From contig NZ_JBITDX010000004.1 in the NCBI RefSeq assembly GCF_044454585.1, positions 240,766 through 304,765 of the forward strand: a stretch of DNA of 64,000 bases, read 5' to 3'. Every line of letters starts with the position of its first letter. The stretch's first letter is position 1. The notes under the pieces were generated by a model. That model was given only the letters and a program-made list of their open reading frames with translations, was not told the origin of the DNA and did not search any database. Positions 45,426-62,830 of the stretch are shown here, in pieces. A program made the translations under genes and the position numbers. This DNA is from Catenuloplanes sp. NPDC051500 (GTDB taxonomy: Bacteria; Actinomycetota; Actinomycetes; Mycobacteriales; Micromonosporaceae).

Positions 45426-45447
45426 TCAAGGCGAGCCCGTGCCGGGC

Positions 45448-46896
45448 CTATTCGGCGCAGACGGCGCCTTCCCGGGCCGGCGGGACGCCGTCGAGCAGGT
45501 AGCGGTCCACTTCCGGACGGCAGGCGCCGTAGACGTACGAACCGTGCCCGTTGCCCTCGCGGGTCAGCAGCCGGCCGTTCTCCAGGGTTGCCGCGGCGGA
45601 CTGTCCCCACTCGTAGAGCGCCGCCGGGTCACCGGTGCCGGCGATCAGCACGATCGGCACCGAGCCCTTGGCGGTGACCGGATGCGGGCGGGACACGCCA
45701 CCGTTCGGCCACTGCGGACACGGCGTGCCCGACATGACCTCCGGCCCGAACACCTGTCGTTCCCGGATCAGGGCGGCCCGGTCCGCCATGATCCGCGCCG
45801 CGCTGCGCCGGTCCGGCAGGTCCAGGCATTGGATCGCGTTGAACGCGATGCCGGTGTCGGGGTCCGGTGTGATGACGCTGTGGTCGCCGGCGCGCACGGC
45901 CGTGAACAGGCTGTCCAGCTCCGGGGCACCGGCCGGGTTGGACAGGTGCTCCTCCGTCAGGTTGACGAGCTGCAGCTGCTCGCCCGGATGCCGGTCGGCC
46001 GCCCGGAACAGCTCCGCCACCGCAGTCCGGCCCTGTGCCACGGTCGATCCGTGGAATGGGCAGCCGGCCCGGTCGTCGCAGGTGTCCAGGTAGGCGTCCA
46101 GACCCCGCTCCTCGCCCTTGGCCACGTCGGTGAGGAAGGCCTTGTTGTCCTGGGCCGGGTCGACGACCGCGTCAAGCACCATGCGCCCGACCCGGGTGGG
46201 GAACAGGTCCGCGTACCGCAGGCCGAGGCGGGTGCCGTAGGAGCCGCCGTAGTAGGAGAGCTTGTCGTCGCCGAGGACGGCGCGCAACACGTCGAGGTCC
46301 CGGGCGGCACTTACCGTGTCGACGTGATCGAAGATCGGCCCGGACTCGGCCCGGCACGCCCGCACCCAGCTCCTGACCGCCGCCTCCCGGGCGATCCGCT
46401 CGGCGAGGTCGTCCGGGGAGGCGTCCGAACTCCGGAACGCCGCGTCGGCCTCCGCCGGGCAGCTCAGCGGCGCGGACCCGCCCACCCCCCGAGGGTCGAA
46501 GCTGACCAGGTCGAACCCGTCGATCACCGGCCTGCTGAAGAAGCGCGCCGCGAACTCAAGGAACGGTTTCCCCGGTCCGCCCGGTCCGCCCGGATTGAGC
46601 AGCAGTGACCCCCGGCTGGTGCCGGTGGCCCGGTGCCGATGCACCTTTATCGTGATCGTCTGTCCCGCCGGGCGCGACCAGTCCACCGGGACTGTGACGT
46701 CTGTGCAGTCAAGCACCAGTCCGTGCTCGTCGTCGCAGGACGCCCAGGTGAGCGTCTGCCGGTAGAACCTGTCCGGGGTCTCCGCGGCGTTTGCAGCCGG
46801 CACACCCAGGCCCATCGTCAGGCCACCCACAAGCAGTGCTGCGGCGGTGTGTCGCCAGCCGGGACCGCGCGTCCGTCCATCAGATGTTCTCGTCAT
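45448..46896 (-). CDS. secreted alpha/beta hydrolase, S33 tripeptidyl-aminopeptidase (TAP) family
   Basis: Signal peptide (AAALLVGGLTMGLGVPAANA), then LLNPGGPGGPG and the nucleophile elbow YYGGSYGT. Confidence 0.8.
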   Translation of the reverse strand: MTRTSDGRTRGPGWRHTAAALLVGGLTMGLGVPAANAAETPDRFYRQTLTWASCDDEHGLVLDCTDVTVPVDWSRPAGQTITIKVHRHRATGTSRGSLLLNPGGPGGPGKPFLEFAARFFSRPVIDGFDLVSFDPRGVGGSAPLSCPAEADAAFRSSDASPDDLAERIAREAAVRSWVRACRAESGPIFDHVDTVSAARDLDVLRAVLGDDKLSYYGGSYGTRLGLRYADLFPTRVGRMVLDAVVDPAQDNKAFLTDVAKGEERGLDAYLDTCDDRAGCPFHGSTVAQGRTAVAELFRAADRHPGEQLQLVNLTEEHLSNPAGAPELDSLFTAVRAGDHSVITPDPDTGIAFNAIQCLDLPDRRSAARIMADRAALIRERQVFGPEVMSGTPCPQWPNGGVSRPHPVTAKGSVPIVLIAGTGDPAALYEWGQSAAATLENGRLLTREGNGHGSYVYGACRPEVDRYLLDGVPPAREGAVCAE

Positions 46897-46976
46897 GACG
46901 TCGACGCTAGGGAGGCGGCAGGTCCCGGCCATCCACCCGCGGTGCCCTCCCGTGGTGGTACCGAGGTACCACGCGG

Positions 46977-48275
46977 TCAGGAACTCCCGGACAGGTGGGC
47001 GTGGGCGAGTGTGAAAGCATGTTCGCTTCCCGGCGTACGCCGTAGTTGCTCGCCGAGCGTCTGTGCCGCCGGCGCGCAATCGAGCACGCGCTGCACAGCG
47101 GCGGCGATGTCGTCCGCCGACGCCGCGTTCGGGTCCAGGGCCACGCCGGTCCCGGTGGTCTCGATCGCCGCCGCACCTGCGAACTGGTCTGTGGAAAACG
47201 GCAGCGCCAGCATCGGTACGCCCGCGGTGAGGGCCTCGGTGACGCTGTTGTTACCGGCGTGCGTGACGGCCATCGCCGCCTGCTCAAGCAGCACGGTCTG
47301 CGGAAGGTAGGGGCGCACGAGCCAGGTGTCCGGCATCGGCGGCAGGTCCTGGGCCGATCCGGTCGCCAGCGCGACCCGCAGGCCGGAACGCCGCAGTGCC
47401 GCGGTGACCGTGCTCAGCACATCCGCCCGGGTGGACAGGAAGCTGCCGAAGCTGACGTAGGCGAACGGCTGGTCGCCTGCGTCCAGCCACGCTCGCACGT
47501 CTGCCGGGACGGTCTCGGTGCGGACCGCCGAGCCGAGGAACGCGTGCGGAGCCGGCAGAGCGGTACGGGCCGGGTCGTGCAACGCGGCGGGATAGTTGTA
47601 GAGCACCAGGTCGCCGTGTTCGGTGAACGCGTCCGTCGCGGGTGTGGCGGTGGGGGCGAGGGTGTGCAGCGCGGCGTTCCACTCGGCGGTGAACTCGTCC
47701 CGCACGGTGCCGCACAGCCGGTGCAGCTCGGCGAGTTCGCTGTCGGCCGGACGGAACGCCGCCGGCCAGGCTGTCGGGTAGCCGTAGACCTCGTCGCCGA
47801 CGGGCAGGGCCGACGGGTGGCCGAGCACGACGTCCACGTGCGGGACAGCACCCGCGGTCAGGGCCAGCCGGGCGCTGAAGGCCAGATGGTCGACGATGAT
47901 CTGGTCGGGCTTGACCTGCTCGACCACCGCGAGGACCGCCCGTGCCCGGTCGACCGGTTCCCAGAGCAGGTCGTTGCGGCGGGCCTCAGCCTGGAAACGA
48001 AGCGTCTCGACCATCCCGCGGTACGTCGCGGCGAAGAACCCGCGCAGCGCGTCGTCCTCGCCGGCCGGCTGCTGCTCGGCCCGGATCACGCCCGGGTTGG
48101 AGCCCCGGCCGAGCGGAAGGTCGCAGTGCGCGAAGCCGAACCCCGCGACCAGTGCTGCGGTCGCGGGGCCGGTCGCCACCACGACCCGTTCGCCGGCCTT
48201 CTGCCACGCGGTGGCGAGGGTGGCCAGCGGCAGCAGGTGGGAGGCGTAATCCGGGCTGATCACCAGGAGGGTCAT
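46977..48275 (-). CDS. GT1-family UDP-glycosyltransferase (MGT/macrolide-GT-like)
   Basis: THAGNNSVTEALTAGVPMLALPFSTDQ (PSPG-like C-terminal motif). Confidence 0.8.
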   Translation of the reverse strand: MTLLVISPDYASHLLPLATLATAWQKAGERVVVATGPATAALVAGFGFAHCDLPLGRGSNPGVIRAEQQPAGEDDALRGFFAATYRGMVETLRFQAEARRNDLLWEPVDRARAVLAVVEQVKPDQIIVDHLAFSARLALTAGAVPHVDVVLGHPSALPVGDEVYGYPTAWPAAFRPADSELAELHRLCGTVRDEFTAEWNAALHTLAPTATPATDAFTEHGDLVLYNYPAALHDPARTALPAPHAFLGSAVRTETVPADVRAWLDAGDQPFAYVSFGSFLSTRADVLSTVTAALRRSGLRVALATGSAQDLPPMPDTWLVRPYLPQTVLLEQAAMAVTHAGNNSVTEALTAGVPMLALPFSTDQFAGAAAIETTGTGVALDPNAASADDIAAAVQRVLDCAPAAQTLGEQLRRTPGSEHAFTLAHAHLSGSS

Positions 48276-50377
48276 GACCGGTGCTCCTCGACTGTCACGG
48301 ACGCGTAGATGCCGGCCAGGCTACCGGCCATCGCATCCACGGTCAGGCCGTCGCTGATCCTGGCGCGGGCCCGCTCGACCCGCGACGGCGTGGGCAGGCA
48401 CGCGAGATCGAGGGCGCCCAGGAACGCGTCGGCCAGAGCGGCCGGGTCGCCGGCCCGGGCGAGCATCCCGGTGACGCCATGCTCGATGTAGGTGGCCGGA
48501 CCGCCGGCGTCCGGCCCGACCACGACCAGGCCGGCGGCCAGCGCCTCGAGCAGGGCGAGGCCGAACTCCTCCTTGAGGCTGGCGCACACGTAGACGCCGC
48601 CGGCGGCGATCAGGGACGTACGGCCGGCATGTGCTGCCGCGAGCCAGCGGGCCACCACGTCGTTGGGCCGGTGGCCCGGCATGATCAGCCCGGCCGAGGC
48701 CTCCGGGTACTCGCGCAGCACCTCGGCGACGAGTTCCAGTTGCTCCCGCTCGTCCAGGGACGGATCCGCCAGGTCGCCGCCGACGATCAGCAGGTTGCAC
48801 CGTTCGCGCAAGTCCGGGTCTCGGGCCCACGCCTGCACCAGGGTCGCCATGCCTTTGACCCGGTGCAGCCGCCCGACACTCATCGCCAGTGGCAGGCCGT
48901 GGCGCCGCGGCGGCAGAGCTTCGACGAGCGCCTCCAGTTCGTTCATCGCCGAGGAGTCAAGCGGCTCGGCAGCAGCGGCCCGGCTGACGTCCAGGTCGAT
49001 GCCTTCCGCGACAACGCTGTAGCGGCCGGTCCCGTCGGCGATGTCGATGCCGATGAGGGTCTCCAGGTCGCGGGCCAGGTGCGGGCGGGGGAAGAGGACG
49101 ACATGGCCGGCCTCGGCAGCCAGCCGTTGCACAAGCCGCGCCCGGAACCAGTAGTGCTCCCGTTCATCCACCTGGCCGAAGTTGTCGCGACGCAGACCAC
49201 CCGTGCGTTCCAGGGCGTCGATTGTCGCGTGCGGGTCCGGGGCCAGGGTGAACACGATCGGGATGCCCAGCTCCGCCGCCACCTCGGCCGTGGCCAGGCT
49301 GCCGACCTCCGCCATCCGCAGGTGGACGGCGTCGATGTGATGGGCGCGCAGCAGGCGCCGGACACCACGCCGTACGGCGACCCGGGCCGGCCACGCGTCG
49401 GCCGCGTTGGTCGCCGGGCCCGGCATCGGCACGCCCGCAAGCACGTGGCGCTCGTCAGCGGAGAGCGCGGCCAGCGCATGCTCCGGGGTGCCGCGCGAGA
49501 TGGTGAGCACCCGCTCGACGCCGGGCTGGGCGGCGAGCTTGTCGCCGAGCCGGACGAGCAGGGTGGCGATGCCGCCGTTGTCGCCGGCACCGGCCCGGCT
49601 CAGCTCCCGATCGAGGTCCGCGTGCAGGAACAGTTGGGCGATCCGCAGGCCCGGCGTGTCCCCGGCGGAGCCTCGGCCGGCGACCGGTGCGAGGTCGGCG
49701 GCGGCCAGCCGGGCCACGGCGCCGAGCTCTCCGTCCGCGGTGCGCAGGGACTCGAGCGCCCGTACCGTTTCCGGGTCGCCCGGCCAGTCCCCAAGAGCGG
49801 CGACAGCCCGGGTACGGGCGGCCGGGCTCTCGTCCGGGTCCAGGGCGATCCGGCGCACGGCCTGCACGGCCGACTCGGCGGGCACCAGGCCGAGGGTCTC
49901 GACGAGCCGCGCACGGGTCTGCGGGTCCCGCGTCCCGGCCAGGGCCCGGAGCAGCTCGGTGGCGATGTGGTCCCCCGCCGGGCCGCCCCAGCTCTCCAGA
50001 GTCCGCTGCGCGAGCATGCCGGAGAACCCACCCCCGGCGACAGTGCGGACGAGCCGGTCGATCGCGTCCAGCCGGGGCAGGCGCGACTGCAGCATCCAAG
50101 CCGCATGCTCCCGCAGAAACCGGCGCGGATGCGACAGAAGCCGCGACAGTACGGCGTCGGCCTCATCGTCGATCACGGCGCCGATACCGTGTACGGCGGC
50201 CACCGCCGCCAACTCGTCGTCCCCGTCCACCGCCTCGGCCAGCGACCTCATCACCGATCGTGCGGGACTCCGTGCGGCCTCGAACGCGAGCCCGTGATCG
50301 TCGCGGAGAACGTCGAGCATGGAAGCACTGCGGCGGACCTCGTGCAATACGGAGTTCACGGATGACGGCATACCCAT
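48272..50377 (-). CDS. fusion protein: N-terminal HEAT/PBS-lyase-like repeats + C-terminal GT4 glycosyltransferase
   Basis: N-terminal half has repeated LL.AL...D...R..A...LG motifs. C-terminal has EEFGLALLEALAAGLVVVGPDAGG (GT4 E-x7-E). ATGA overlap with the GT1 gene. Confidence 0.7.
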   Translation of the reverse strand: MGMPSSVNSVLHEVRRSASMLDVLRDDHGLAFEAARSPARSVMRSLAEAVDGDDELAAVAAVHGIGAVIDDEADAVLSRLLSHPRRFLREHAAWMLQSRLPRLDAIDRLVRTVAGGGFSGMLAQRTLESWGGPAGDHIATELLRALAGTRDPQTRARLVETLGLVPAESAVQAVRRIALDPDESPAARTRAVAALGDWPGDPETVRALESLRTADGELGAVARLAAADLAPVAGRGSAGDTPGLRIAQLFLHADLDRELSRAGAGDNGGIATLLVRLGDKLAAQPGVERVLTISRGTPEHALAALSADERHVLAGVPMPGPATNAADAWPARVAVRRGVRRLLRAHHIDAVHLRMAEVGSLATAEVAAELGIPIVFTLAPDPHATIDALERTGGLRRDNFGQVDEREHYWFRARLVQRLAAEAGHVVLFPRPHLARDLETLIGIDIADGTGRYSVVAEGIDLDVSRAAAAEPLDSSAMNELEALVEALPPRRHGLPLAMSVGRLHRVKGMATLVQAWARDPDLRERCNLLIVGGDLADPSLDEREQLELVAEVLREYPEASAGLIMPGHRPNDVVARWLAAAHAGRTSLIAAGGVYVCASLKEEFGLALLEALAAGLVVVGPDAGGPATYIEHGVTGMLARAGDPAALADAFLGALDLACLPTPSRVERARARISDGLTVDAMAGSLAGIYASVTVEEHRS

Positions 50378-50519
50378 GCTTCGGAGCCGCGACCGCTCCC
50401 GGATGCAAAAGATCGGCACAAAAAGAGTGCGCTACCGCACACCGTTTTTAGACCCGCCAGAGCCGCGCCTGGGCGACCACCGCGACGCGGGGTCTGGGGG
50501 TCGCTTCCAGGAAACTACC

Positions 50520-50601
50520 GTGGGCCGGACGTTGCACCATGCGAACCACCCGATCATCGTCACCGGCGACCCCACTGCCGGGACGTTTGGCCAGTTCAAG
50601 G
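50520..50601. repeat. direct repeat copy A (about 82 bp)
   Basis: gtgggccggacgttgcaccatgcgaaccacccgatcatcgtcaccggcgaccccactgccgggacgtttggccagttcaagg; about 85% identical to 51946..52027. Confidence 0.8.
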
Positions 50602-50662
50602 GGTACTCGACCAGCCCGATAGCCTGATTCAGACCCACCCTCAGCCGCCTCGGAGTGCTGCG

Positions 50663-51229
50663 CTACCAGGCCGGGGGACCAAGATGGCGTCGTACTTCAG
50701 CCGCGAATCTAGGTACGCCGGTGCGTTGCAGAAGGACGAGGACCTCCGGCACGGTGTTCGGCGCACGTCGGTAGGACGCGGCTTGGTGACGGAGCACGTC
50801 CATGGTCAAGCCGGGGTAGAGATCGAGTTGGTCGAGGAGGAAATCGTCGGGGTGGATGGCTGCGATGTCGTAGGGCTTGAGGGCCGGCTCGGGGAAGTCG
50901 CTGAGGTTGAAGGTGACGATGACTTCGGCGTTGGCGCGTACGGCGGCAGCCAGAACGTGTCGGTCCTTCGGATGGTTCGTCATACCGTCGACAAGTGACT
51001 CATAGCCAGTGACCAGGGCGTCGGGGAATGACCGGCTCATCTGGCCAAGCCGCCGATCAACCCGATCCGGTGGTAGCCCGCGCTTGGTGAGGTTGCGACG
51101 TAGTTCGGTGAAGACGTCGGCCGACCAGAGCGGCCGGTATGCGGAGGCTTCGGCGAGGCGAAGCAGGGTGTCGCACAGGTATGCCGGGTAGAGCACGCAG
51201 GTGTCAAGGAACGCGGGAAACGCCACCAT
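50663..51229 (-). CDS. PIN-domain toxin (VapC-like, about 190 aa)
   Basis: FLDTCVLYP at the N-terminus (first acidic residue), DRHVLAAA, TFNLSDF. Confidence 0.75.
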   Translation of the reverse strand: MVAFPAFLDTCVLYPAYLCDTLLRLAEASAYRPLWSADVFTELRRNLTKRGLPPDRVDRRLGQMSRSFPDALVTGYESLVDGMTNHPKDRHVLAAAVRANAEVIVTFNLSDFPEPALKPYDIAAIHPDDFLLDQLDLYPGLTMDVLRHQAASYRRAPNTVPEVLVLLQRTGVPRFAAEVRRHLGPPAW

Positions 51230-51238
51230 GACCGGCTG

Positions 51239-51709
51239 TCACCTCGACGGCGGTGAGTCGAGGGTGATCTCGTACAGGTCGTCGTCCTCGGCGTCGGCTG
51301 CCATCTGGTCCAGGGCGCGGCGGCGTTCGGTGCGGGTGCGTTCGGAGTAGTCGAGGATGTCCCGCAGCAGGACTCGTCGGTGCCGGCCGCGCAGGCTGTG
51401 CGGGATCTCGCCGTCGGTCAGCAGGCGGACCAGCGTAGGTCGTGAGATGTTGAGCAGGTCAGCGGCCTCTTGGGTGGTCAGCATCGTGTTGTGCGGGGCG
51501 ATCGAGATGGCCATGCCCTGGGACAGGGCACCGACGACGTCGCGCAGCAGTTCGTAGAGTTCGGCCGGGATGTCGAGCTGCGAACCGTCCGGGCCCACCA
51601 GCTTCGCTCGGGCGGGGGCCTCGGCGGCGGCCATACCCCGCGCGAAGCGCACCAGGTCGGCGGGGTTTTCAGGTGGCAGAACGGTCCGTTCACGCAGGGT
51701 GCTCGACAT
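51239..51709 (-). CDS. HTH_17 (excisionase/MerR-like) DNA-binding antitoxin partner
   Basis: LTTQEAADLLNISRPTLVRLLTDGEIP...GRHRRVLLRDILDY. A 9-bp gap separates it from the PIN gene. Confidence 0.7.
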   Translation of the reverse strand: MSSTLRERTVLPPENPADLVRFARGMAAAEAPARAKLVGPDGSQLDIPAELYELLRDVVGALSQGMAISIAPHNTMLTTQEAADLLNISRPTLVRLLTDGEIPHSLRGRHRRVLLRDILDYSERTRTERRRALDQMAADAEDDDLYEITLDSPPSR

Positions 51710-51945
51710 GAAGCCAGCATACCGCTATTCGAAAAATCCGAAAGCCGCTACGGCTTGGTGAAGCCCAGCGTGCGATAGCCGGGCATTCGGCGCTGCAGCG
51801 AGACAGCCAGGATCGGCGTCGCCGGGTCGTGCCGGCCACGATGGCAGATCGCCACGATCCCCGACGAACGCAGATCCACCTTCCGGAGCTCCACCAGCAG
51901 CCGACAACAGCGAATCGCCGGGCCGCGGTTCGCATGCAAGATCAA

Positions 51946-52027
51946 AGTGGGCCGGACGTTGCACCATGCGAACCACGCCACCATCGTCCCGGGCCGCCCA
52001 CTATCGGGACGTTTGACCAGCTCAAGC
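51946..52027. repeat. direct repeat copy B
   Basis: gtgggccggacgttgcaccatgcgaaccacgccaccatcgtcccgggccgcccactatcgggacgtttgaccagctcaagcg. Confidence 0.8.
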
Positions 52028-52125
52028 GTTAGACGCTAGCGCTCGGGGCCGTTGACCCCAACAACAGCGGGCTCACCCTCCATGCCGATAGTGGTACCGT
52101 ATTCAGTACCACTTCGGGAGGCATC

Positions 52126-52383
52126 ATGACGTCTGCGATCAGTGCCAGCGAGGCGCGCAAGTCCCTATTTCCACTCATCGAGCGTGTCAACGAGGACCAC
52201 ACCCCGATCGAGATCGTTTCCAAGCGGGGTAACGCCGTCCTGGTGAGCAAGGAGGACTGGGACTCGATCATGGAGACCAACTACCTGCTCCGATCGCCCG
52301 CCAACGCCAAGCGCCTCGTCGAGAGCGTCGAGCAGTGGCGAGCCGGCCGAGCCACCGAACGCGAGTTCGGCCCCGAGGAGTGA
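52126..52383 (+). CDS. yefM: YefM/Phd-family antitoxin
   Basis: SASEARKSLFPLIERVNEDHTPIEIVSKRGNAVLVSKEDWDSIMETNYLLRSP. Confidence 0.85.
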   Translation: MTSAISASEARKSLFPLIERVNEDHTPIEIVSKRGNAVLVSKEDWDSIMETNYLLRSPANAKRLVESVEQWRAGRATEREFGPEE

Positions 52384-52640
52384 AACTCAGCTGGACCGAC
52401 CACGCCTGGGACGACTACCTGTACTGGCAGACCCAGGACCGCAAAACCCTCAAACGCATCAACGCGCTGATCGCCGACATCAAACGCGACCCCGACGGCC
52501 AGGGCATCGGCAAGCCGGAGATCCTCCGAAACAACCTCGCCGGACTCCGGTCCCGTCGCATCGATGACGAGCACCGCATGGTGTACGCCGTCGAGCCCAG
52601 CGAGATCTCCATCATCTCCTGCCGATACCACTACGAGTAG
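52380..52640 (+). CDS. yoeB: YoeB/Txe-family toxin (mRNA interferase)
   Basis: LSWTDHAWDDYLYWQ...RINALIADIKRDP...GIGKPE...HRMVYAV...CRYHY. GTGA overlap with yefM. Confidence 0.85.
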   Translation: MKLSWTDHAWDDYLYWQTQDRKTLKRINALIADIKRDPDGQGIGKPEILRNNLAGLRSRRIDDEHRMVYAVEPSEISIISCRYHYE

Positions 52641-52661
52641 GTCAGGCCTTATCGTTGCTGC

Positions 52662-53799
52662 TCAGCGGCGTTTGGCGAACTCTGCCAAGCGCTCGCTGAG
52701 CGGGCTCACCCGTGGGCGCGGTGGCCGATCGAAGTAGCCCGGCTTGATCTCGCGCATCAGCGTCTCACCGTCCCGGTTCCAGTCGAACCGTGGCCTCTTC
52801 AACAGCCGCCGGAACACGACACTCGCCTTCTCGGGATCTCGAGCAGCCAGCCGGCGCAGGACCATCGGCTCCACACTGTCGTCCTCGATGTAGGACAGCG
52901 TCTGCTCGCGCCACCGGCGGCGCCGCAACAGGTCGGGGTTCGCGAACGCTTCCTCCAGGAGGCCGAACTCCGCGTAGAAGCCGAGTCCGTCCGTCTCGTC
53001 GTAGATCAGCGCAACCGTTTCCGCATCGGTCACCTCCGGCGGCAACGACATCGACACCGCCGGAGGGACGTCCTTCGGGTCCGGCCCGAGAACCGTGTTC
53101 ACGGCAGTAGGTGTAGTAGCCGTCGAGCCGCTCCTGTGCCTGTTCCCCCGGGACCACCAGAAGGTCGGTGCCGAAGAACTCGACGAACCGTGCCCGGTCA
53201 GCACGCTGATGCTTCCACGCCATTGCCATCTTGTCCGGGTTCCGGAACACCGCTTCCGGCGTACGCAAAGACATGTCCAGCGCGAGTCGATAGGCGATGT
53301 CCCGTTCGCTCCCGCGGAGAATCTGTACCGGCCCGCTCAGCATCCACTCGTCACCGACAGCGACCAGCCGGGCGATGATGAACGAGTGGCGCGGCATCTG
53401 CTTGAACACGGCCGGGCCCATGTTCGATCTAACCCGATAGGTCAAGTCGTCGACGAGGCTCTCCACCAGGAGCGCGGGCCCGTCCTTGCGCTGCACCTCG
53501 AACGGGCCCTGCACCACGTCGCGCCAGCCGAGCACCATCTCCCGTTCGGCCTCCGGCAGGTCCGGCCGGGCCTCGACGAACTGCTCCACCACCGTCCGGC
53601 CGTTCGCCAACCGGTGCTCCAGCACGAAACAGTCCCAGAGCAGCATCCACCGCTGCTCATCGGCGTCTTCGCGGCCGTTGCCGTACTGGGCCAGAAAACT
53701 CGACGCAGCCCGGTTGTAGCGGGGCTGCTGAGAAAACGCCACCAGCTCGCCCTTGAGGTCACCCGCCCGTCGGAGCAGCGCGGCATCAGACATCGACAT
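52662..53799 (-). pseudogene. hypothetical protein gene (about 380 aa) disrupted by a frameshift near 53090-53110
   Basis: Frame A (53799 to about 53080) gives a protein-like sequence up to ...ERLDGYYTY, then Arg/Gly-rich nonsense. Frame B becomes protein-like from ...NTVLGPDPKDVPP down to the stop at 52662. Confidence 0.45.
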
Positions 53800-53856
53800 A
53801 CCACCAACCTATGAGCTGCCGGAGTCAGACCGGCACGGGGTGCCTCGTTCGGGTGG

Positions 53857-55086
53857 TCAGTCGGTCAGATATCGAGCGAGGCGTTCGGCGTTGAGTCCCC
53901 GCATCGCGTCCTCCACGGCTTCCGAGTCGGAGAGATCGATACCACGGGCCGTCAGCTCCGCGGCGATCTGCTTGGCCGGACCCCACGCCGCCGTGTCGTC
54001 GAACGCCTCCTCGAACGCGGGAAGGAACGTGTCGACAGCCTCGATCACCGGACTGATCCATACCGGGTCGACCGCACGGTGTTCCAGGGCGTACCGGATC
54101 CAGCGTCGCAACACGTCCGGCAGCGCGGCACGCTGCTCAGCGTCCAGCGCCGCCTTGCGCGGCAACCAGTCGGCCAGGAACAAGCCGACCTGTCCTGGGC
54201 TCCAGCACAGCGGACCGCTGGTCATGTAGCCGGCACCGTAATCCAGGAACAGGTCGGCCAGCGACCTGGCGACCGTGTCGTCGGCCGGCGCGAATCCGTC
54301 CAGCAGTCGTTGCCGTTCCTCATCGTCCATCGGCTGCCAGTCACGGAAGTCCGGCAGGTACGGAAGGCATCGTGACCAGGCCATCGCCCGCAAGTCGAGG
54401 AAGTCCTCGTCATCGTGGCGGGGCCAGGTCATGTCCGTGGTCCGCAGCGCGTCCGCCAGCTCCGCCAGCGCCACCTCGACCGGGCACTCGACGGCCGGCA
54501 TCGGCACCTCGTCGGGCTCACGCAGCCGATCCCAGGTCTCCGCAGCCCCGGGCTGCAGTAACGCCAGCTTGTCGACCAGCACACCGCCGGCGAGGGAGAT
54601 CTGCGCCATCAACGTGTGCGGAGTCTGCCCGGCGAACTCGACGAACAGCACATGCTCGCTGTCCCAGACATCCACCGCTCGCCACGCCCGAACCGGCTCA
54701 AAGACAGGCGCCTCGAACCACGATGGCACAGGCTGACTCTCCGACAAGATCTCCAGGGTGCCATCCAGCATCGACCACTCACCAGGAGCGCCGACACGGC
54801 GCAGCGCCGCCACCGCGGCCAGCCCGTGCGGCAACGGCCGGGTCGACGCCCGGCCCACCACCTCCAGGTGGAACATCTTCTCCGGGTCACGCTCGCCGAG
54901 CCCCGCGGCCGACCATGCCGCGCCGAGCCACTCACTGGCCCACCGCTCCACCTCGAGCACACTGTCCTCGGACACGATCGTCACCGCGTCACGCATCAAC
55001 CGGTCCGACAGCCGCAACTCCCGCACCGGGCGCTGCGGACGCCTCGGCTTACCTCGTCCCGCGGGACGACCACGACTCTTAGGCAT
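53857..55086 (-). CDS. hypothetical acidic protein (410 aa)
   Basis: Protein-like composition with no recognisable motif. Start at Met-23 (MPKSRGRP). Confidence 0.5.
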   Translation of the reverse strand: MPKSRGRPAGRGKPRRPQRPVRELRLSDRLMRDAVTIVSEDSVLEVERWASEWLGAAWSAAGLGERDPEKMFHLEVVGRASTRPLPHGLAAVAALRRVGAPGEWSMLDGTLEILSESQPVPSWFEAPVFEPVRAWRAVDVWDSEHVLFVEFAGQTPHTLMAQISLAGGVLVDKLALLQPGAAETWDRLREPDEVPMPAVECPVEVALAELADALRTTDMTWPRHDDEDFLDLRAMAWSRCLPYLPDFRDWQPMDDEERQRLLDGFAPADDTVARSLADLFLDYGAGYMTSGPLCWSPGQVGLFLADWLPRKAALDAEQRAALPDVLRRWIRYALEHRAVDPVWISPVIEAVDTFLPAFEEAFDDTAAWGPAKQIAAELTARGIDLSDSEAVEDAMRGLNAERLARYLTD

Positions 55087-55186
55087 GTACCCATTTACCG
55101 CATTCAGCCCGGCACAACGCCCGAGCGACCCGCGGTTCGTGCAATGCCACATTCAACCAGCACGAACACGCAGGCCATGCGCAGAG

Positions 55187-55261
55187 TGGGGCCGGCGGGA
55201 CTCGAACCCGCACTGGAACGGACCTAAACCGTTTGCCTCCTGCCAATTGGGCTACGGCCCC
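55187..55261 (-). tRNA. tRNA-like gene with predicted anticodon UAG (Leu-decoding) but class-I architecture (5-nt variable loop, 3-bp D-stem); possibly an atypical or pseudo-tRNA
   Basis: Reverse complement GGGGCCGTAGCCCAATTGGCAGGAGGCAAACGGTTTAGGTCCGTTCCAGTGCGGGTTCGAGTCCCGCCGGCCCCa. It has a perfect 7-bp acceptor stem, a T-arm GCGGG-TTCGAGT-CCCGC and an anticodon arm AACGG-TTTAGGT-CCGTT. CCA is not encoded. Confidence 0.6.
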
Positions 55262-55391
55262 CAAAGCGAAGAACCGGTCACAACCGTCCTGACCGACACT
55301 CCTGTTGCTGCTCGGGATCATAGTTGACCGGAGCTTTTGCGATGTGGCGTAGGTGGCCGATCCGGCTGCGGCAGGCAGGGCGGCGCCGAGG

Positions 55392-55868
55392 TCAGTCGAG
55401 GCCGAGGTCCTTGCGCAGCTTTGCCACGTGGCCGGTGGCCTTCACGTTGTAGAAGGCGTGCTCGATCCGGCCCTCCTCGTCGATCACGAATGTGGAGCGG
55501 ATGACGCCGACGACTGTCTTGCCGTAGAGCTTCTTCTCGCCGAAGGCGCCGTAGGCGGTGAGCGTCTCCTTCTCCGGGTCGGAGACCAGCGGGAAGGTGA
55601 GCGCGTCGTGTTCGCGGAACTTTGCGAGCTTGGCGGGGGTGTCCGGGGAGATGCCGACGACCTCGTAGCCGGAGCCCTTGAGTGACGCGAGCGAGTCGCG
55701 GAAGTCGCAGGCCTGCTTGGTGCAGCCGGGGGTCATGGCGCTTGGGTAGACGTAGAGGATGACCTTGCGTCCGCGCAGGTCCGATAGGGAAAACCGGTCT
55801 CCGGTGTCGGTCGGCAGGGTGAACGAAGGTGCGGTGTCGCCGGCGGCGAGACGGATGGCGTCGGTCAT
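55392..55868 (-). CDS. bcp: thiol peroxidase / peroxiredoxin Bcp
   Basis: YVYPSAMTPGCTKQAC (peroxidatic Cys in a TPGCT context). Internal ATG start at 55868. Confidence 0.85.
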   Translation of the reverse strand: MTDAIRLAAGDTAPSFTLPTDTGDRFSLSDLRGRKVILYVYPSAMTPGCTKQACDFRDSLASLKGSGYEVVGISPDTPAKLAKFREHDALTFPLVSDPEKETLTAYGAFGEKKLYGKTVVGVIRSTFVIDEEGRIEHAFYNVKATGHVAKLRKDLGLD

Positions 55869-55973
55869 GTGCGTCAGGTTACCGGGGCCACACGGAAGGC
55901 CAATTGCAAGTCCTTGGCAACAAGGGGCGCAAGCCAATAGTCTGAGCGCGACCTGAGGAAGGAAGCGGCGCTC

Positions 55974-56666
55974 ATGAATCCTGAGGCACTGCACATCTCG
56001 AACGGTGTCCTCAACGGGCCCGTCTCCATCGCCTACGCCGTGCTCGCCGCCGTCGCGATCGGCGTGTGCGTGGTCAACAGCCGCCGTGACCTGGAGGACC
56101 GCCTGGTCCCGATGGCGGGGCTGGTGGCCGCGTTCATTTTCGCGGTGCAGATGCTCAACTTCCAGGTGCTGCCGGGGGTGAGTGGGCACCTGCTGGGCGG
56201 CGCGCTCGCGGCGATCCTGGTCGGGCCGTGGGTGGGCGCACTGTGCATGACGATCGTGATCACGGCGCAGGCGCTGTTCTTCGCGGACGGCGGCATCACG
56301 GCGCTGGGGCCGAACATCACGAACATGGGGCTGCTGTCGACAGCTGTCGGGTTCGGGGTGACGGCGCTGCTGTTGCGCGTGCTTCCGCGTACCCCCAACG
56401 GCCTGTCGATCTCGGTTTTCGTTGCGGCAGTGGTGAGCGTGGTGGTGGCGTCGCAGAGCTTCGTGCTGCAGTACGCGATCGGCGGCTCGACGCCGCTTGA
56501 CGAGCGGAGCCTGGCGGGCATCGCGGCGGTGATGGGCGGCACGCACCTGCTGATCGGCATCGGTGAGGGGCTGATCAGCGCGGCGACAGTGGCGACTGTC
56601 GCCCGGGTCCGCCCGGATCTGGTCTACGCGCTGCGTGGCCTGAAGAAGAGGGAAGTGGCGGTATGA
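55974..56666 (+). CDS. cbiM: ECF-type Co/Ni transporter substrate-capture component CbiM/NikM
   Basis: N-terminal HISNGVL and multiple TM helices. Confidence 0.8.
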   Translation: MNPEALHISNGVLNGPVSIAYAVLAAVAIGVCVVNSRRDLEDRLVPMAGLVAAFIFAVQMLNFQVLPGVSGHLLGGALAAILVGPWVGALCMTIVITAQALFFADGGITALGPNITNMGLLSTAVGFGVTALLLRVLPRTPNGLSISVFVAAVVSVVVASQSFVLQYAIGGSTPLDERSLAGIAAVMGGTHLLIGIGEGLISAATVATVARVRPDLVYALRGLKKREVAV

Positions 56667-56992
56667 GGAAGTTCATCCTGGCCGGCCTCCTGACGGCGCT
56701 GCTGCTCGCGGGCGTGGTCAGCAGCTTCGCGTCAAGCTCGCCGGACGGGCTCGACTCGGCCTCGACCAAGGGCTGCACGACGGACGCGGACGGCGAGATC
56801 ACCGGCGGCACCTGCATCGCGCAGGGGGCGAAGGACCATGAGCTGGCGGACAGCCCGCTCGCGGATTACAGCATCCGGGGTGTGGAGAACTCGTACCTGT
56901 CGACCGGCCTGTCCGGCATCGCCGGCGTGCTCCTGGTCTTCGGGGTCGCGGGCGGCGCGTTCTGGCTGCTCCGAAGCCGCAAGCGTTCCTGA
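56663..56992 (+). CDS. PDGLE-domain small membrane protein (CbiN/NikL-like accessory component)
   Basis: SSSPDGLDSAS motif between two TM helices. Overlaps both neighbours. Confidence 0.65.
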   Translation: MRKFILAGLLTALLLAGVVSSFASSSPDGLDSASTKGCTTDADGEITGGTCIAQGAKDHELADSPLADYSIRGVENSYLSTGLSGIAGVLLVFGVAGGAFWLLRSRKRS

Positions 56993-57732
56993 TGCTCTAC
57001 CGTGAGGGCGCCACGCCGCTGCACCGGCTCGCCCCCGAGGTGAAGATCGCCGCGACAGTGGCGATCACTGTCGCGATGGTGGCGACGCCGCGGCACGCGT
57101 TCTGGGCGTTCGGCGCCTACGCGCTGATCGTGGTCGCGCTCGCGGTCACCGCGCGGATTCCGGCGGGCTGGCTGGCCAAGCGCAGCCTGGTCGAGACGCC
57201 GTTCGTGCTGCTCGCGCTGATCATGCCGTTCCTCGGCGCGGGCGAGCGGGTCGGCTGGCTCGGCCTGCAACTGTCCGTCGAAGGGCTCTACGGCGGGTTC
57301 AACCTGCTGGTCAAGGGCCTGCTCGGCGTGCTGATCTCGCTCATTCTGGCCGCGACCACGACCACCCGGGACATCATCGTCGGCCTGGACCGGCTGCGCT
57401 GCCCGAAGGAACTCACCCAGATCGCCACGTTCATGCTGCGCTACCTGGACGTGCTGACCGGCGAGGCCCGACGCATGCACGTGGCCCGGCTGGCCCGCGG
57501 CGACGACCCGCGGTTCCTGTGGCAGCTGCGCGGCTTCGCGACCGGCGTCGGCGCGCTTTTCCTGCGCGCGTTCGAGCGGGGTGAGCGCGTCTACCTGGCG
57601 ATGCTGTCCCGCGGATACACCGGCACGCTGTTCCCGCAGAGCCCGGGCGCCGGCGTGGCACAGTGGGCGACGGCCGCGACAGTACCCCTGGTGACGGCCG
57701 CGATCGCGGTGACCGCCACGATCCTCACATGA
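56992..57732 (+). CDS. cbiQ: ECF transporter transmembrane (T) component CbiQ
   Basis: 5-6 TM helices and a conserved C-terminal ARLARG...R region. Confidence 0.8.
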   Translation: MLYREGATPLHRLAPEVKIAATVAITVAMVATPRHAFWAFGAYALIVVALAVTARIPAGWLAKRSLVETPFVLLALIMPFLGAGERVGWLGLQLSVEGLYGGFNLLVKGLLGVLISLILAATTTTRDIIVGLDRLRCPKELTQIATFMLRYLDVLTGEARRMHVARLARGDDPRFLWQLRGFATGVGALFLRAFERGERVYLAMLSRGYTGTLFPQSPGAGVAQWATAATVPLVTAAIAVTATILT

Positions 57733-58478
57733 CCGACGCACCGAGCCTCGACGTCCGCGACGTCGGCTTCGCCTATCCGGACGGCCACCGCGCGCTGGAC
57801 GGCGTCACCCTGACCGTCGGGCGCGGCGAGCGCGTCGCGCTGCTCGGGCCGAACGGCGCCGGCAAGACCACGCTGGTCCTGCACCTGAACGGCATCCTCA
57901 CCGGCGGCACCGGCTCGGTGACGGTCGCCGGGCTCACGGTCGCCAAGGACCGCGGCACGCTCACCGAGATCCGCCGCCGGGTCGGCATCGTCTTCCAGGA
58001 CCCGGACGACCAGCTGTTCCTGCCGACCGTGGCCGAGGACGTGGCGTTCGGCCCGGCGAACCTGGGGCTGCGCGGCGCGGAGCTGGCCGCGCGGGTCGAC
58101 GAGGCGCTCGACGCGGTGGGCATGCGCGAGCACCGGGAGCGGATCCCGTCGCACCTGAGTTTCGGCCAGCGGCGCCGGGTGGCGGTGGCGACAGTGCTGG
58201 CGATGCGGCCGGAGATCCTGGTGCTCGACGAGCCCAGCTCCAACCTCGATCCGGCGTCCCGGCGCGAGCTGGCGGACATCCTGCGCGGCCTGCCGGTGAC
58301 GGTGCTGATGGTCACCCACGATCTGCCCTACGCGCTCGAACTCTGTGACCGCTCGGTCATCCTCGACGACGGCCGCATCGTGGCGGACGGCCCGACCCGC
58401 ACGCTTCTCGCCGACCCGGGTCTGCTCGCGAAACACCGCCTCGAACTGCCCTACGGCTTCTCCGTCCCCACCCCATAG
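57729..58478 (+). CDS. cbiO: ECF transporter ATPase CbiO
   Basis: Walker A GPNGAGKTT, LSFGQRRRV signature, Walker B ILVLDEPSS. ATGA overlap with cbiQ. Confidence 0.9.
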   Translation: MTDAPSLDVRDVGFAYPDGHRALDGVTLTVGRGERVALLGPNGAGKTTLVLHLNGILTGGTGSVTVAGLTVAKDRGTLTEIRRRVGIVFQDPDDQLFLPTVAEDVAFGPANLGLRGAELAARVDEALDAVGMREHRERIPSHLSFGQRRRVAVATVLAMRPEILVLDEPSSNLDPASRRELADILRGLPVTVLMVTHDLPYALELCDRSVILDDGRIVADGPTRTLLADPGLLAKHRLELPYGFSVPTP

Positions 58479-58480
58479 AG

Positions 58481-58590
58481 CCAGTTCATCTTCCCGCTCA
58501 CGCGGTGGTCCGGCCCGCACGCTCCCGCGGGCACCGGTCGTCGCCCAGGGGCTCCTCCCTTCCGGTTCCGCGGTGGTCCAGGGGGACGGT
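58481..58590. mobile_element. partial (left-end) copy of the MITE-like repeat
   Basis: TTCATCTTCCCGCTCACGCGGTGGTCCGGCCCGCACGCTCCCGCGGGCACCGGTCG...CTCCCTTCCGGTTCCGCGGTGG is about 90% identical to 41465-41560. Confidence 0.6.
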
Positions 58591-59667
58591 TCAGCCGTCG
58601 GCGGGCTCGTCGAGCGCGGCCTTGAGGGTGAGCGGTGAGCGGGGAGCACGCGCGGCCGCGGACGTCCCGCCTGTCGTGACCGCCGCCGCGCGCATGCGCA
58701 GGACCGCGGCGGCCGTCAGCCCGAAGCCCAGCGCGAGCGCCAGCAGGTCGAGCACCCGGGCCACCACGGGCGGCCACGGCGCGGGCACGACGGAGTTGAC
58801 AAGCGCGCCCGCGTTCGCCAGGCCGACGAAGACGCCGATGCAGATGCCGGCCAGCGCGAGCGCGAAGTCGGCGGACGGGCGCCGGGCCAGCGTGAACGCG
58901 GCGGCGGCCAGCCCGCCGAGACCGGTGAGCGCGGGCCAGAGCTGCGTGGAGGCCAGGGCGGGAAGCGCGGTGCCGAGCGTGTCGTTGCCCGCGTCGAGCT
59001 CCCGGCCGACCGTGTAGGCGAGCGCGGACAGGCCACCGGCGGCGGACGCCAGCGCCAGCAGCCAGGGCGTCAGCCGTGCGCGGAGCAGGCCGAGCAGCGC
59101 GACAAGCGCGCCGGTCAGCACCACGGCGGCCCACCAGGTGCCGGCGTAGGGCGGTGGCTGCCAGTCGAGCGTGCCGGTGACGGTGATCAGGGAGACGCCG
59201 TCGCGGAGGATGACGGTCCAATCCCGTACCCGCTGAGGTTGGCCTGGGTCTGCGGTCACGGCCGGGGGTGGCGTGTCGCTCATCCAGTAGGTGCGGTGAT
59301 CGTGCCAGCGGACCGTGGGCGAGTCGGAGATCTGGCGCCAGGCCGGCGGCACGGTCGGGCCCGCGGTGGCCGGGATTGCCGTGGACGTGCTGATGCTCGC
59401 GTTCAGGTAGGTGGCGGCCGAGTTGACGTTCTCCCACACGCCGGCCGGGGAGATACGCAGGTAGGGCTCGTTCTCGTAGCCCAGCACCTCGATCTCGCGG
59501 GCCGAGGTGCTGGTCAGCTCCAGCCGGGAGCCGGCCTCGATCACCCGGACCCGGACGCCGGGCGTGGCGGGCGAGACGCCGGTGATCTCGGCGCGGTAGT
59601 TGGTCCCGGCCGGGGCCTCACCGCCGTGGGCGAGCGCGGGCGCGGCCGGGACCGGCGTGACGAGCAC
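58591..59667 (-). CDS. hypothetical secreted/membrane protein (N-terminal beta-rich domain + C-terminal multi-TM region); start codon uncertain
   Basis: The protein-like sequence begins around ...LAAAVAIGVLVTPVPAAPALAHGGEAPAGTNYRAEITGV. The only canonical start in frame after the dsbA stop is GTG 59667, which leaves a very short signal sequence. The upstream part of the track ORF overlaps dsbA and is rejected. Confidence 0.45.
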   Translation of the reverse strand: MLVTPVPAAPALAHGGEAPAGTNYRAEITGVSPATPGVRVRVIEAGSRLELTSTSAREIEVLGYENEPYLRISPAGVWENVNSAATYLNASISTSTAIPATAGPTVPPAWRQISDSPTVRWHDHRTYWMSDTPPPAVTADPGQPQRVRDWTVILRDGVSLITVTGTLDWQPPPYAGTWWAAVVLTGALVALLGLLRARLTPWLLALASAAGGLSALAYTVGRELDAGNDTLGTALPALASTQLWPALTGLGGLAAAAFTLARRPSADFALALAGICIGVFVGLANAGALVNSVVPAPWPPVVARVLDLLALALGFGLTAAAVLRMRAAAVTTGGTSAAARAPRSPLTLKAALDEPADG

Positions 59668-59696
59668 GCCGATCGCGACCGCGGCCGCGAGACGGG

Positions 59697-60413
59697 TTAC
59701 TTGACTGCGGATTCGACGGCCGTGGTCAGGCCGGTGGCCGAGCGGTCCTGAAGCACGGTCCCGGCGACGAGGACTGTCGGCGTGCCGGTCACCCCGCGCT
59801 CGCTCGCCTTGTCCGTGATCTGTGCGCTCCACGTCTTGTATCTTCCGTCCTTCACGCATTGTGTGAAGGAGTCCCCCAGACCCAACCCGGTGCCGAGCGA
59901 GATCAGCTTGTCGTCGTCGAGGCCGGGCGTGTTCTCCTCCGGGCGGTTCTGGAAGAGCACCGAGTGGTATTCGGCGAACGTGCCTCCGTCCGCGGCACAA
60001 GCGGCGGCGCCGGACGCACGGGTGGAGTAGTCGGTGCCCTGCGAGAAGCGGTCCAGGATCGCGATCGGGTGGTAGACCACCGTGACCTTGGCGTCCTTGA
60101 CCAGCTGGTCGATGGTGGCGGCGGCGCCGCTCTCGAACTGGCCGCAGGCCGGGCACATGAAGTCCTCGTAGACGTCGACCGTGACCGGGCCGGTGCCGAC
60201 CGCGAAGCCGCTGCCGTCAGCGGTGGCGGCCGTGGGCGTGAAGACCTCGCCGGTGCGCTGCGAGGCGAAGACGCCGTACCCGATCACACCTGCCACGAGC
60301 AGCGCGGCGACCGCGGCCACCGAGATCCACACCGTGGCCCGGCGGCGCTGCTCCTTGGCGAGCTGCTCGCGTACCATCCGGTTCGCCTGTTTTTGATCTT
60401 TGCGAGAACTCAT
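59697..60413 (-). CDS. membrane-anchored DsbA-family thiol:disulfide oxidoreductase
   Basis: N-terminal TM anchor and a thioredoxin fold with the FMCPAC active site. Confidence 0.85.
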   Translation of the reverse strand: MSSRKDQKQANRMVREQLAKEQRRRATVWISVAAVAALLVAGVIGYGVFASQRTGEVFTPTAATADGSGFAVGTGPVTVDVYEDFMCPACGQFESGAAATIDQLVKDAKVTVVYHPIAILDRFSQGTDYSTRASGAAACAADGGTFAEYHSVLFQNRPEENTPGLDDDKLISLGTGLGLGDSFTQCVKDGRYKTWSAQITDKASERGVTGTPTVLVAGTVLQDRSATGLTTAVESAVK

Positions 60414-60426
60414 GCCTTCTACCTCG

Positions 60427-60918: not shown

Positions 60919-61156
60919 TGGTCGCGCCGGGCTGTCGCCCGGTTCCGTGCTTACGGTGACGGGAAGCGGACGCGGCGGGTACGGGCGAAGGTCCTGTGAT
61001 CGCCGGGAACTTTCCGGCAGTTCCGCCCGACTACCACGGCATGGTGTGCCGCCCCCTGCCCAATGTCGCATTTGACCCAATATGCGGGGTCGGGCTGATA
61101 GGTGTAGGACACGCCACGCCGACCACGGGCGATCATCGCCACATCCGTGGGAGAGC

Positions 61157-62815: not shown

Positions 62816-62830
62816 AAGGGTCCCCTCCCG

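Follow-up and report, generated by a model that had tools for sequence, protein, structure and literature searches.

We describe an insert next to a tRNA gene in a 64-kb stretch of the Catenuloplanes sp. NPDC051500 genome (contig NZ_JBITDX010000004.1, positions 240,766 to 304,765), hereafter the window; positions are counted from its first base, and the contigs compared with it carry L numbers. The insert is 8.2 kb long, abuts the 3' end of a 76-nt tRNA(UAG) gene, and is probably a tandem array of non-autonomous, att-bounded cassettes that accumulated by accretion and were recombined in trans. A preliminary description, made from the sequence alone, had proposed a tRNA-adjacent integrated island here. 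Insertion against the tRNA and an empty site in a relative bear this out, but the insert takes up 8.2 kb, including a pair of glycosyltransferase (GT) genes, and reads as an array of at least two cassettes. The genes named in that description, namely a PIN gene with an HTH_17 partner, yefM-yoeB, a frameshifted gene of about 380 aa (here hypA), a gene for an acidic protein (hypB) and the tRNA-like gene, were all found where it had placed them (Table 1), and the 3' end of the minus-strand tRNA gene does face the block.

An empty site delimits the insert

A search through bcp found L090 as the closest relative, with 94% amino acid identity in bcp and 89-93% nucleotide identity in the flanks. By blastn, window 55186-63566 corresponds to L090 8878-29 and window 43562-46972 to L090 12478-9012. 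Just 133 nt separate the two matched segments in L090, where the order is the tRNA, those 133 nt and an S33 peptidase gene. The comparison of presence and absence among relatives that had been suggested thus came out in favour of an insertion: the block is missing from L090. One edge of the insert is exactly the tRNA 3' end, as homology to L090 ends at 55186. Because the L090 empty site spans the pair formed by GT1 and a HEAT-repeat GT4, this pair is also cargo, and the earlier label of a housekeeping GT operon has to be given up for genes that are absent from the L090 locus, patchy in distribution and non-syntenic.

Beyond bcp and the tRNA, the locus holds an SNF2 helicase gene in L087, cupin, TetR and EndoU genes in L088, and other genes again in Actinoplanes SE50. 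With different genes there in two Catenuloplanes genomes and in SE50, the site is a hotspot. The hypB-hypA-yoeB/yefM module is 86-90% identical in nucleotide sequence to that of SE50 and, over 3262 nt, 89.9% identical to that of C. indicus, whereas the cbi/cop core region reaches only 66-69% against SE50 (66-80% for the core overall) and 82-85% against Catenuloplanes. This discordance between module and core genome points to horizontal transfer, and on these identities the insert is evidently horizontally acquired.

Repeats, cores and cassettes

Two direct repeats, at 50520-50609 and 51947-52035, bracket the PIN/HTH pair. They share a 30-nt identical stretch and are 83-87% identical over about 85-90 nt; the number of such repeats expected by chance is none. 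Each starts with GTGGGCCGG, which resembles the plus strand of the tRNA 3' end, GTGGGGCCGG, over about 10 nt with one indel, and the T-loop-like GGTTCGCAT is shared as well. Both copies are internal to the insert: they begin at 50520 and 51947, whereas its outer end is at 46973. The duplicated tRNA segment that had been anticipated therefore exists in part: there are direct repeats whose core is like the tRNA 3' end, but the repeated site consists of a 10-nt core and an arm of about 80 nt, apparently peptide-coding, with no long tRNA fragment.

Other genomes place the cassette boundaries. In A. utahensis and C. indicus, homology running from hypB reaches window position 55195, beyond which these genomes show the repeat in place of the window's tRNA body; C. 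indicus has the repeat at both ends of its 3.26-kb hypB-hypA-yoeB/yefM module. Cassette 1 of the window, about 51959-55185, holds hypB, hypA and yefM-yoeB (3.2 kb), and cassette 2, about 50532-51958, holds the HTH_17/PIN pair (1.43 kb; 1,427 bp). The cassette 1 module of SE50 ends in arm, core and a type 1 flank (flank types are defined below) with nothing between them, whereas at the same point the window reads core, type 2 flank, HTH, PIN, arm, core and type 1 flank. Compared in this way, the 1,427-bp PIN/HTH unit appears as an insertion that duplicated arm and core. The PIN/HTH cassette recurs at 93.8% identity in a metagenome contig (L102), with homology beginning exactly at the core, 50520. 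As far as these junctions tell, the block is a tandem array of at least two cassettes and not one island.

A structured RNA or an attC-like hairpin was also considered for the repeat and ruled out. Rfam gave no match to the repeat at E ≤ 1, returning the tRNA alone, and no single-strand hairpin was found on either strand of either copy, the folds being like those of shuffled sequences (z from -1.0 to +0.9).

Junction types

Read on the tRNA strand, each junction has a left part, which is either the tRNA body or the arm, and a right part, which is one of a few flank types: type 1 is a terminator-like hairpin, type 2 is CTTTGATCTTGCATGCGAACCG, and type 3 is TGRCCTGC...GGCATTGCGCGAACCGC. The type 2 flank follows a tRNA-Met 3' half in L006, an intact tRNA-Met in L136, and repeat copies in SE50, L109, L113, L121 and L140. 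Four combinations complete a quartet: tRNA-Met with type 1 (SE50), arm with type 1 (SE50 and copy A of the window), tRNA-Met with type 2 (L136) and arm with type 2 (copy B of the window and SE50). This is the pattern expected of attB, attP, attL and attR, and the sites are accordingly termed att-like here, with a putative crossover inside CCGG(C)CCCAC.

The arm peptide and the recombinase

On the window plus strand the arm reads VGRT(M/L)HHAN(H/R)PT(V)(V/I)PGDPLPGRLTSSR..., with 25-29 codons from the M/L. Across 31 in-register copies the entropy at codon positions 1, 2 and 3 is 0.64, 0.42 and 0.82, Gly16 and Pro18 are invariant, their codons differing freely at the third position, and the first codon is ATG in 16 copies and TTG in 15. 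Going by this codon signature, the arm is to all appearances protein-coding. A 16-codon open reading frame (ORF) in another frame of the arm was discarded, third-position variation favouring the frame given here. The ORF is intact in copy B, with 26 codons, and frameshifted in copy A.

In L006 and L137, which are homologous and so not independent, a Phage_integrase C-terminal fragment (Pfam, 46 bits) abuts the site in a frame continuous with the arm, and about 60 linker codons join fragment and peptide across the core. Three other short ORFs run in frame into the arm from a C-terminal domain that has no library match. With the 30-aa arm peptide as query, a search of 1.84 billion representative proteins retrieved ORFs of 33-150 aa only. 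Since no full-length integrase came up in that search, a separate small ORF in the arm of the att site is favoured, and an integrase gene spanning attP is kept as a rival.

The ORFs that run into the arm are varied. P0361, P0365 and P0367 (from L153, L151 and L150) have the upstream motif ...QRK..(I/L)..AEIR(I/L)DG..P(I/V)(F/Y)R(I/L)P, with a coiled-coil-like stretch before it in L153. In P0369 the arm peptide follows a fused YggX/Iron_traffic domain, and P0362 carries three partial arm peptides in tandem. The ...AEIRIDG..PIFRLP domain was suspected to be the tail of a large serine recombinase, and searches of Pfam, NCBIfam, PHROGs, PDB, phages and plasmids gave this no support. No match was found by tblastn of the arm-upstream ORFs against phages and plasmids.

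The degraded integrase that had been predicted for the region did not turn up. The coding capacity of the insert is all assigned and its two intergenic regions are repeats and flanks, so that a decayed integrase has neither room nor any similarity in its favour. No int or tra genes are among the insert ORFs, tblastn with the L006 integrase fragment found nothing in the 64-kb window, and no recombinase lies beside the arrays in L118 or L128 (below). Lacking a recombinase within the insert, the units are non-autonomous.

Distribution of the repeat and its arrays

An exact degenerate pattern for the repeat hit 57 soil and rhizosphere metagenome contigs, and an nhmmer profile detected 82 copies in 67 loci. 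Copies occur co-oriented, two of them in the window, and four in L118 and five in L128 at spacings of 0.9-4 kb. Between copies we found the toxin-antitoxin (TA) pairs RHH+PIN (VapBC), PemK/MazF with a small partner, Gp49+HTH_3 (HigBA) and YefM/YoeB, as well as HicB; further cargo includes an M1 peptidase, a Crp regulator, an ABC/FtsX pair and AAA ATPases. The smallest unit, a 740-bp cassette with yefM/yoeB only, sits directly at the tRNA-Met 3' end in L136. Exact-pattern searches with the repeat and with the 76-nt tRNA found no match in 2.9 million viral contigs, and plasmid matches to the island by blastn were limited to hypB and TA homologues.

Three contigs illustrate the arrangement: L118 (5423-10756), L128 (2132-9699) and L150 (1167-2214) hold 2-5 co-oriented copies with one TA pair per interval (VapBC, MazF-type, HigBA or YefM/YoeB). 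L118 and L128 have cassettes in common, in identical order.

Proposed formation of the array and alternative explanations

The favoured explanation gives each cassette, read on the tRNA strand, a core of about 10 bp, CCGG(C)CCCAC, common to the tRNA 3' end; a flank with a GCGAACC motif; the cargo; the arm; and then the next core. The arm would be a conserved segment of about 80 bp encoding a 26-29-aa peptide on the opposite strand. A recombinase encoded elsewhere would join attP-like sites (arm-core-flank) to attB-like sites (tRNA-core-terminator flank), or else to the site that terminates a cassette already in place. What would result is an array running from the tRNA through cassette 1 and cassette 2 to the GT cargo, with the GT pair perhaps a third piece whose distal site has been lost. 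The TA pairs probably stabilise the array, making its loss costly.

Several points weigh against this explanation. L090 is a metagenome contig and not an isolate genome. The far end of the insert is without a repeat and coincides with the loss of the 133 nt that L090 keeps. Identity between tRNA end and repeat covers about 10 nt, against segments of 40-110 nt in known actinomycete elements. The insert has no recombinase, a motif scan of the whole 64-kb window for tyrosine recombinases was negative, and a full-length integrase with the arm peptide is absent among the 1.84 billion representatives. The type 1 flank of copy A is closer to the SE50 tRNA-Met flank than to the flank of the L090 tRNA, which may mean that the array came in as a single block and was not assembled in place.

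The cassettes need not derive from larger, decayed elements. An unlinked recombinase could insert, excise and reshuffle small, mostly TA cassettes at tRNA 3' ends, each tagged by a 90-bp peptide-coding site, in the manner of an integron. The co-oriented arrays of four to five repeats at 0.9-4 kb spacing suggest such a capture platform, as do cassettes reduced to one TA pair of 740 bp, the recurrence of the same cassettes in differing orders and contexts, and strong conservation of the repeat over about 60 loci; with complete integrons reported to be lacking in Actinobacteria (PMC4889954), the niche could be filled by another system. We nevertheless think it unlikely, as no recombinase gene with a primary site lies beside any array in the loci examined, the repeat is without hairpin potential (z about 0), cassette genes stand on both strands, presumably with their own promoters, and the integrase fragments of L006 and L137 fit the ordinary decay of integrative elements. 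An account that dispenses with site-specific recombination is harder still to believe: it makes the locus downstream of bcp a variable hotspot, with homologous recombination and deletions between repeats that are a leader or small gene travelling with TA operons. The locus downstream of bcp and the tRNA is indeed different in every genome examined, in at least seven loci the peptide-coding arm invariably precedes yefM by about 85 nt and points the same way, and the distal insert end is a deletion junction. But the junctions agree within 10 bp in independent contexts, all four combinations of body and flank are found, tRNA body and arm can replace each other at the same point, and the arm also occurs with no gene following or converging on a gene (copy A, SE50 rep1 and C. 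indicus).

That the arm might be the 3' end of an integrase gene, with attP inside int as in Mx8- or SSV-like elements, is suggested by the reading frame that continues from the Phage_integrase fragment into the peptide in L006 and L137, and by the three further ORFs that read from a C-terminal domain into the arm. On this model every integration would remove the integrase tail, which would stay behind as a scar at the distal end of the element, and the cassettes would be the remains of 'suicidal' integrations. This is doubtful in view of the short ORFs retrieved by the peptide search and of the first codon, which in 31 of 31 copies is ATG or TTG and never CTG or CTC, the usual Leu codons of high-GC genomes, and so points to a start codon. 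A run of 86 GC-rich codons would, in addition, stay open by chance about 1 time in 4, and L006 and L137 count as one case. Very improbable, finally, is a prophage or phage-satellite remnant, for which one could cite the position by a tRNA, the excisionase-family HTH protein and the HNH remnant beside the tRNA. The insert is devoid of phage structural or replication genes, PHROGs returned nothing for hypA or hypB and BFVD no fold match for hypB, the viral contigs lack an exact match to repeat and tRNA, and the HTH_17 gene is partnered with a PIN toxin, not an integrase.

If the favoured explanation, that of att-bounded cassettes accreted in tandem, is true, it describes a compact and widespread route for moving and stacking TA and accessory genes in actinobacteria. 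A bolder version, which we put forward as a speculation with rather poor chances, is that Micromonosporaceae and related soil actinobacteria have a form of cassette capture analogous to integrons and mechanistically unrelated to them. Cassettes of about 1 kb, mostly TA and some with defence-like or hypA/hypB-type genes, would each end in a site of about 90 bp encoding a 29-aa peptide; an unlinked recombinase would stack them as co-oriented arrays at the 3' ends of tRNAs sharing one T-arm/acceptor sequence; and the 76-nt tRNA(UAG) would itself be a mobile replacement of the canonical tRNA-Leu(UAG).

The anchor tRNA

The 76-nt tRNA is class-I-shaped, 100% identical in L090 and 96% identical in C. 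nepalensis, where the differences preserve the structure. Its D-loop and anticodon loop are like those of tRNA-Leu, and its T-arm and acceptor like those of tRNA-Met. Of its 26 nt at the 3' end, 25 are identical in SE50 tRNA-Met(CAT), which would account for the presence of the same cassettes at tRNA-Met in Actinoplanes and at the 76-nt tRNA in the window.

The tRNA locus was compared over window 55186-55374, L090 8232-8984, L087 10726-10801, L088 10526-10610 and L089 10722-10806. Downstream of bcp, C. atrovinosus and SE50 have a normal 85-nt tRNA-Leu(UAG). L090 has, 61 nt downstream of the 76-nt tRNA, a 45-nt fragment that is 100% identical to the 3' part of the normal tRNA-Leu, and upstream of the tRNA an HNH-endonuclease-like ORF. 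This ORF is intact in L090 (8268-8747), scoring just under the Pfam cut-offs for HNH and HNH_3, and the window retains only the end of that region. It looks as if the canonical tRNA-Leu gene had been replaced by a cassette of HNH gene and tRNA. A literature search on class-I-shaped bacterial tRNA-Leu found nothing relevant. The 76-nt tRNA poses the question of how CUA codons are read once the canonical gene has been displaced.

About 200 nt downstream of the tRNA-Met gene of SE50, between it and the first repeat copy, the anticodon arm of that tRNA recurs as a perfect inverted copy of 19 nt (L081 5855-5873).

Cargo genes and composition

Table 1. Features of the insert and its anchor tRNA (window positions)
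Feature	Position	Strand	Basis or remark
Whole insert, absent from L090	46973-55185		8,213 bp; blastn against L090
GT1 (MGT/UDPGT-like) and HEAT-repeat GT4 pair	46977-50419	-	Further insert cargo; no recognisable distal site
Type 1 flank, terminator-like hairpin	50473-50519		Kind found after SE50 tRNA-Met and L090 76-nt tRNA
Repeat copy A: core 50520-50531 and ORF frameshifted by one extra base after ...GDP	50520-50627	+	nhmmer E 8e-21
PIN_3 toxin-like gene, RSP_2648-like	50663-51229	-	Pfam 37 bits
HTH_17 (excisionase-family DNA-binding), antitoxin-like	51239-51709	-	Pfam 51 bits; NCBIfam
Type 2 flank, start of PIN/HTH cassette on tRNA strand, CTTTGATCTTGCATGCGAACCGCGG by core	51832-51946		Recurrence in other loci
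Repeat copy B: core 51947-51958 and intact 26-codon ORF, TTG start 51959, LHHANHATIVPGRPLSGRLTSSSVRR	51947-52039	+	nhmmer E 2e-21
PhdYeFM antitoxin (yefM)	52126-52383	+	Pfam PhdYeFM_antitox 67 bits
YoeB toxin (yoeB)	52380-52640	+	Pfam YoeB_toxin 121 bits
hypA pseudogene, 378-aa family	52662-53799	-	ORFs 52662-53204 and 52765-53799 overlap as one frameshifted gene
hypB, acidic, 409 aa, pI 4.7	53857-55086	-	Widespread actinobacterial family
Type 3 flank, core to hypB, TGGCCTGC ... GGCATTGCACGAACCGCGG on tRNA strand	55120-55185	-	Also in A. utahensis, C. indicus and about 12 metagenome contigs
Putative crossover core at tRNA 3' end, GTGGGGCCGGCG on plus strand	55186-55197		L090 homology stops at 55186, that of C. 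indicus and A. utahensis at 55195
tRNA(UAG), 76 nt	55186-55261	-	ARAGORN Leu(tag); Rfam tRNA 54 bits
HNH-endonuclease-like ORF, remnant of 3' part, upstream of tRNA	55262-55374	-	Window 55186-55374 = L090 8878-8693

The two TA modules are predicted from their gene arrangement and domains. The PIN_3 gene lies directly downstream of the HTH_17 gene with a gap of 9 nt, as expected of a PIN/HTH-antitoxin pair; against the NCBIfam RSP_2648 PIN model it scores 119 bits, under the equivalog cut-off of 170. yefM overlaps the downstream yoeB by GTGA, and both proteins score above their Pfam cut-offs, consistent with a type II YefM/YoeB system. YefM and YoeB are 93-99% identical in amino acid sequence in SE50 and C. 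indicus (93-96% for the SE50 comparison).

hypA is a pseudogene, inactive in the window genome: it has one extra A near 53099 relative to an intact C. indicus orthologue with 92% amino acid identity, and the intact orthologue has a central OB fold. L152, a Logan assembly, is 100% identical to window 41769-57864 and includes the same frameshift. hypA and hypB had been called orphans, a description that does not suit them, as both belong to widespread conserved families of Micromonosporaceae, Streptomyces, Mycobacteriales and others (328 and 538 matches for the two families; the 120 best listed of each show 56-94% identity). Profile searches of both against Pfam, NCBIfam, PADLOC, PHROGs and PDB were all negative, PADLOC giving no family at E ≤ 0.1; fold searches with hypB gave no recognisable fold, and BFVD had no match to it.

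The two genes adjoin each other and yoeB/yefM in the window, SE50 and C. indicus. Other neighbours are BREX genes in A. utahensis and C. indicus, an AAA_11/12-PLD protein gene in A. utahensis, NERD/UvrD helicase and RNase H genes in SE50, and transposases in L3-i22. From this neighbourhood, with BREX in two genomes and the NERD/UvrD helicase in one, we would guess that hypA and hypB are defence cargo. The OB-fold protein hypA and its partner hypB, found beside BREX and helicase genes elsewhere, are candidates for phage-challenge tests. Homologues of hypB also occur on large Rhodococcus plasmids (twenty-odd). The one on the linear megaplasmid pRHL3 of Rhodococcus jostii RHA1 (L092, 258006-259241) is 56% identical in amino acid sequence; its neighbourhood has an AAA ATPase and a DUF2637 gene but no hypA.

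The GT1 and HEAT-repeat GT4 genes are kept together in scattered Actinoplanes, Nocardioides, Cellulomonas, Microbacteriaceae and other genomes (L001-L080), with amino acid identity, where checked, of 45-83% for GT4 and 71-84% for GT1. No other window gene adjoins the pair in the 12 loci inspected (L001-L012). A synteny search through the GT gene was uninformative because the pair is itself non-syntenic: relatives share the two genes and no neighbours. In L006 the pair lies about 350 nt downstream of the tRNA-Met 3' half and its type 2 flank.

The window is high-GC actinobacterial DNA (0.72-0.78 in 500-nt windows), and its nearest core-gene relatives are Catenuloplanes and Actinoplanes (Micromonosporaceae); bcp is 86-87% identical in amino acid sequence to Catenuloplanes and 80-82% to Actinoplanes (80% to SE50). 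A composition check had been proposed as well, and it helps in part. GC drops to 0.62-0.69 across about 50250-56750, and the TA and hyp genes have a GC content at third codon positions (GC3) of 0.75-0.90, compared with 0.88-0.95 in the surroundings, but the dip also covers the syntenic bcp and cbiM, and the GT pair is native-looking in composition. Since the dip extends over syntenic genes, composition by itself cannot delimit the island, and it is the weaker evidence.

In the part of the dip at 55250-56750 (0.65-0.69), which spans bcp and cbiM/cbiN and is syntenic with Catenuloplanes and L090, GC3 is 0.90-0.94. The high GC3 attributes this part to amino acid composition or intergenic DNA, not foreign origin. 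At 41457-41814 of the window, segments of 50-100 nt are 80-96% identical to the intergenic region by cbiO in L087, L088 and L090, a region that sits elsewhere in the window, at about 58.5 kb, a pattern suggestive of either a small rearrangement or a dispersed intergenic repeat.

Comparison with known systems

Mx8- and SSV-type integrase genes span attP (PMC4383910, PMC7253208). The two contigs in which a tyrosine-integrase C-terminal fragment crosses the core in frame into the arm are like them; unlike them, no full-length integrase with such a tail was found, and the arm opens with ATG or TTG like a separate small ORF. The integrative and conjugative elements (ICEs) of actinomycetes, such as pSAM2, SLP1 and pACPL of Actinoplanes SE50/110 (PMC2440964, PMC3364876), share the host group, target tRNA 3' ends for integration and carry direct-repeat motifs by the core; the att site of the window type has two AACGTCC motifs about 53 nt apart. 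The insert differs in being without int, xis, rep and tra, and whereas pACPL uses tRNA-Pro with a 43-nt identity segment, the cassettes use tRNA-Met or the 76-nt tRNA with about 10 nt.

The tRNA gene islands of Islander (PMC4383910) also bear comparison. Here, too, the insert abuts the tRNA 3' end in the expected orientation and leaves the tRNA intact, a direct repeat beginning like the tRNA end marks internal boundaries, and a close relative has the empty site. Differences are the lack of an integrase gene in the insert, a repeated tRNA segment of about 10 nt and not tens of nt, and the outermost boundary without a repeat. Islander needs an integrase and a cognate fragment and would reject the window insert; with no integrase in the units and only about 10 nt of match to the tRNA, such cassettes would be missed by current island finders. 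The 90-nt repeat profile is a simple handle to map them.

With Vibrio super-integrons carrying TA cassettes (PMC4889954), the arrays share co-oriented short cassettes (two repeat copies in the window, four in L118, five in L128), a conserved site-like repeat of about 60-130 nt, richness in TA genes, and cassettes common to several genomes in varied order. Unlike integrons, they have no IntI/attI/Pc platform, with no intI in the window or in the L118 and L128 arrays; the repeat, in contrast to attC, shows neither an imperfect palindrome nor a single-strand fold (z about 0); a cassette of the window type contains 2-4 genes, which lie on both strands, and a tRNA 3' end serves as anchor of the array. 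As complete integrons have been reported to be lacking in Actinobacteria (PMC4889954), an integron-like reading, if true, would be notable.

The insert fits the definition of cis-mobilizable elements (CIMEs) in tandem and the accretion scheme of PMC5704250, known from ICESt1/ICESt3 relatives in Streptococcus and from Streptomyces pathogenicity islands. As in these, attL/attR-like sites are kept (cores at the tRNA, copy B and copy A), genes for integration and transfer are lacking, TA genes are among the cargo, and at the junction where SE50 and the window can be compared, the window adds cassette 2 together with a duplicated arm and core. Unlike CIMEs, cassettes of the window type are far smaller (0.74-3.2 kb, often one TA pair), have a putatively peptide-coding att arm and very short tRNA identity, and no partner ICE or actinomycete ICE was identified for them; their arrays run to as many as five units. 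The interest lies mainly in the repeat family and its arrays, rather than in the window island itself.

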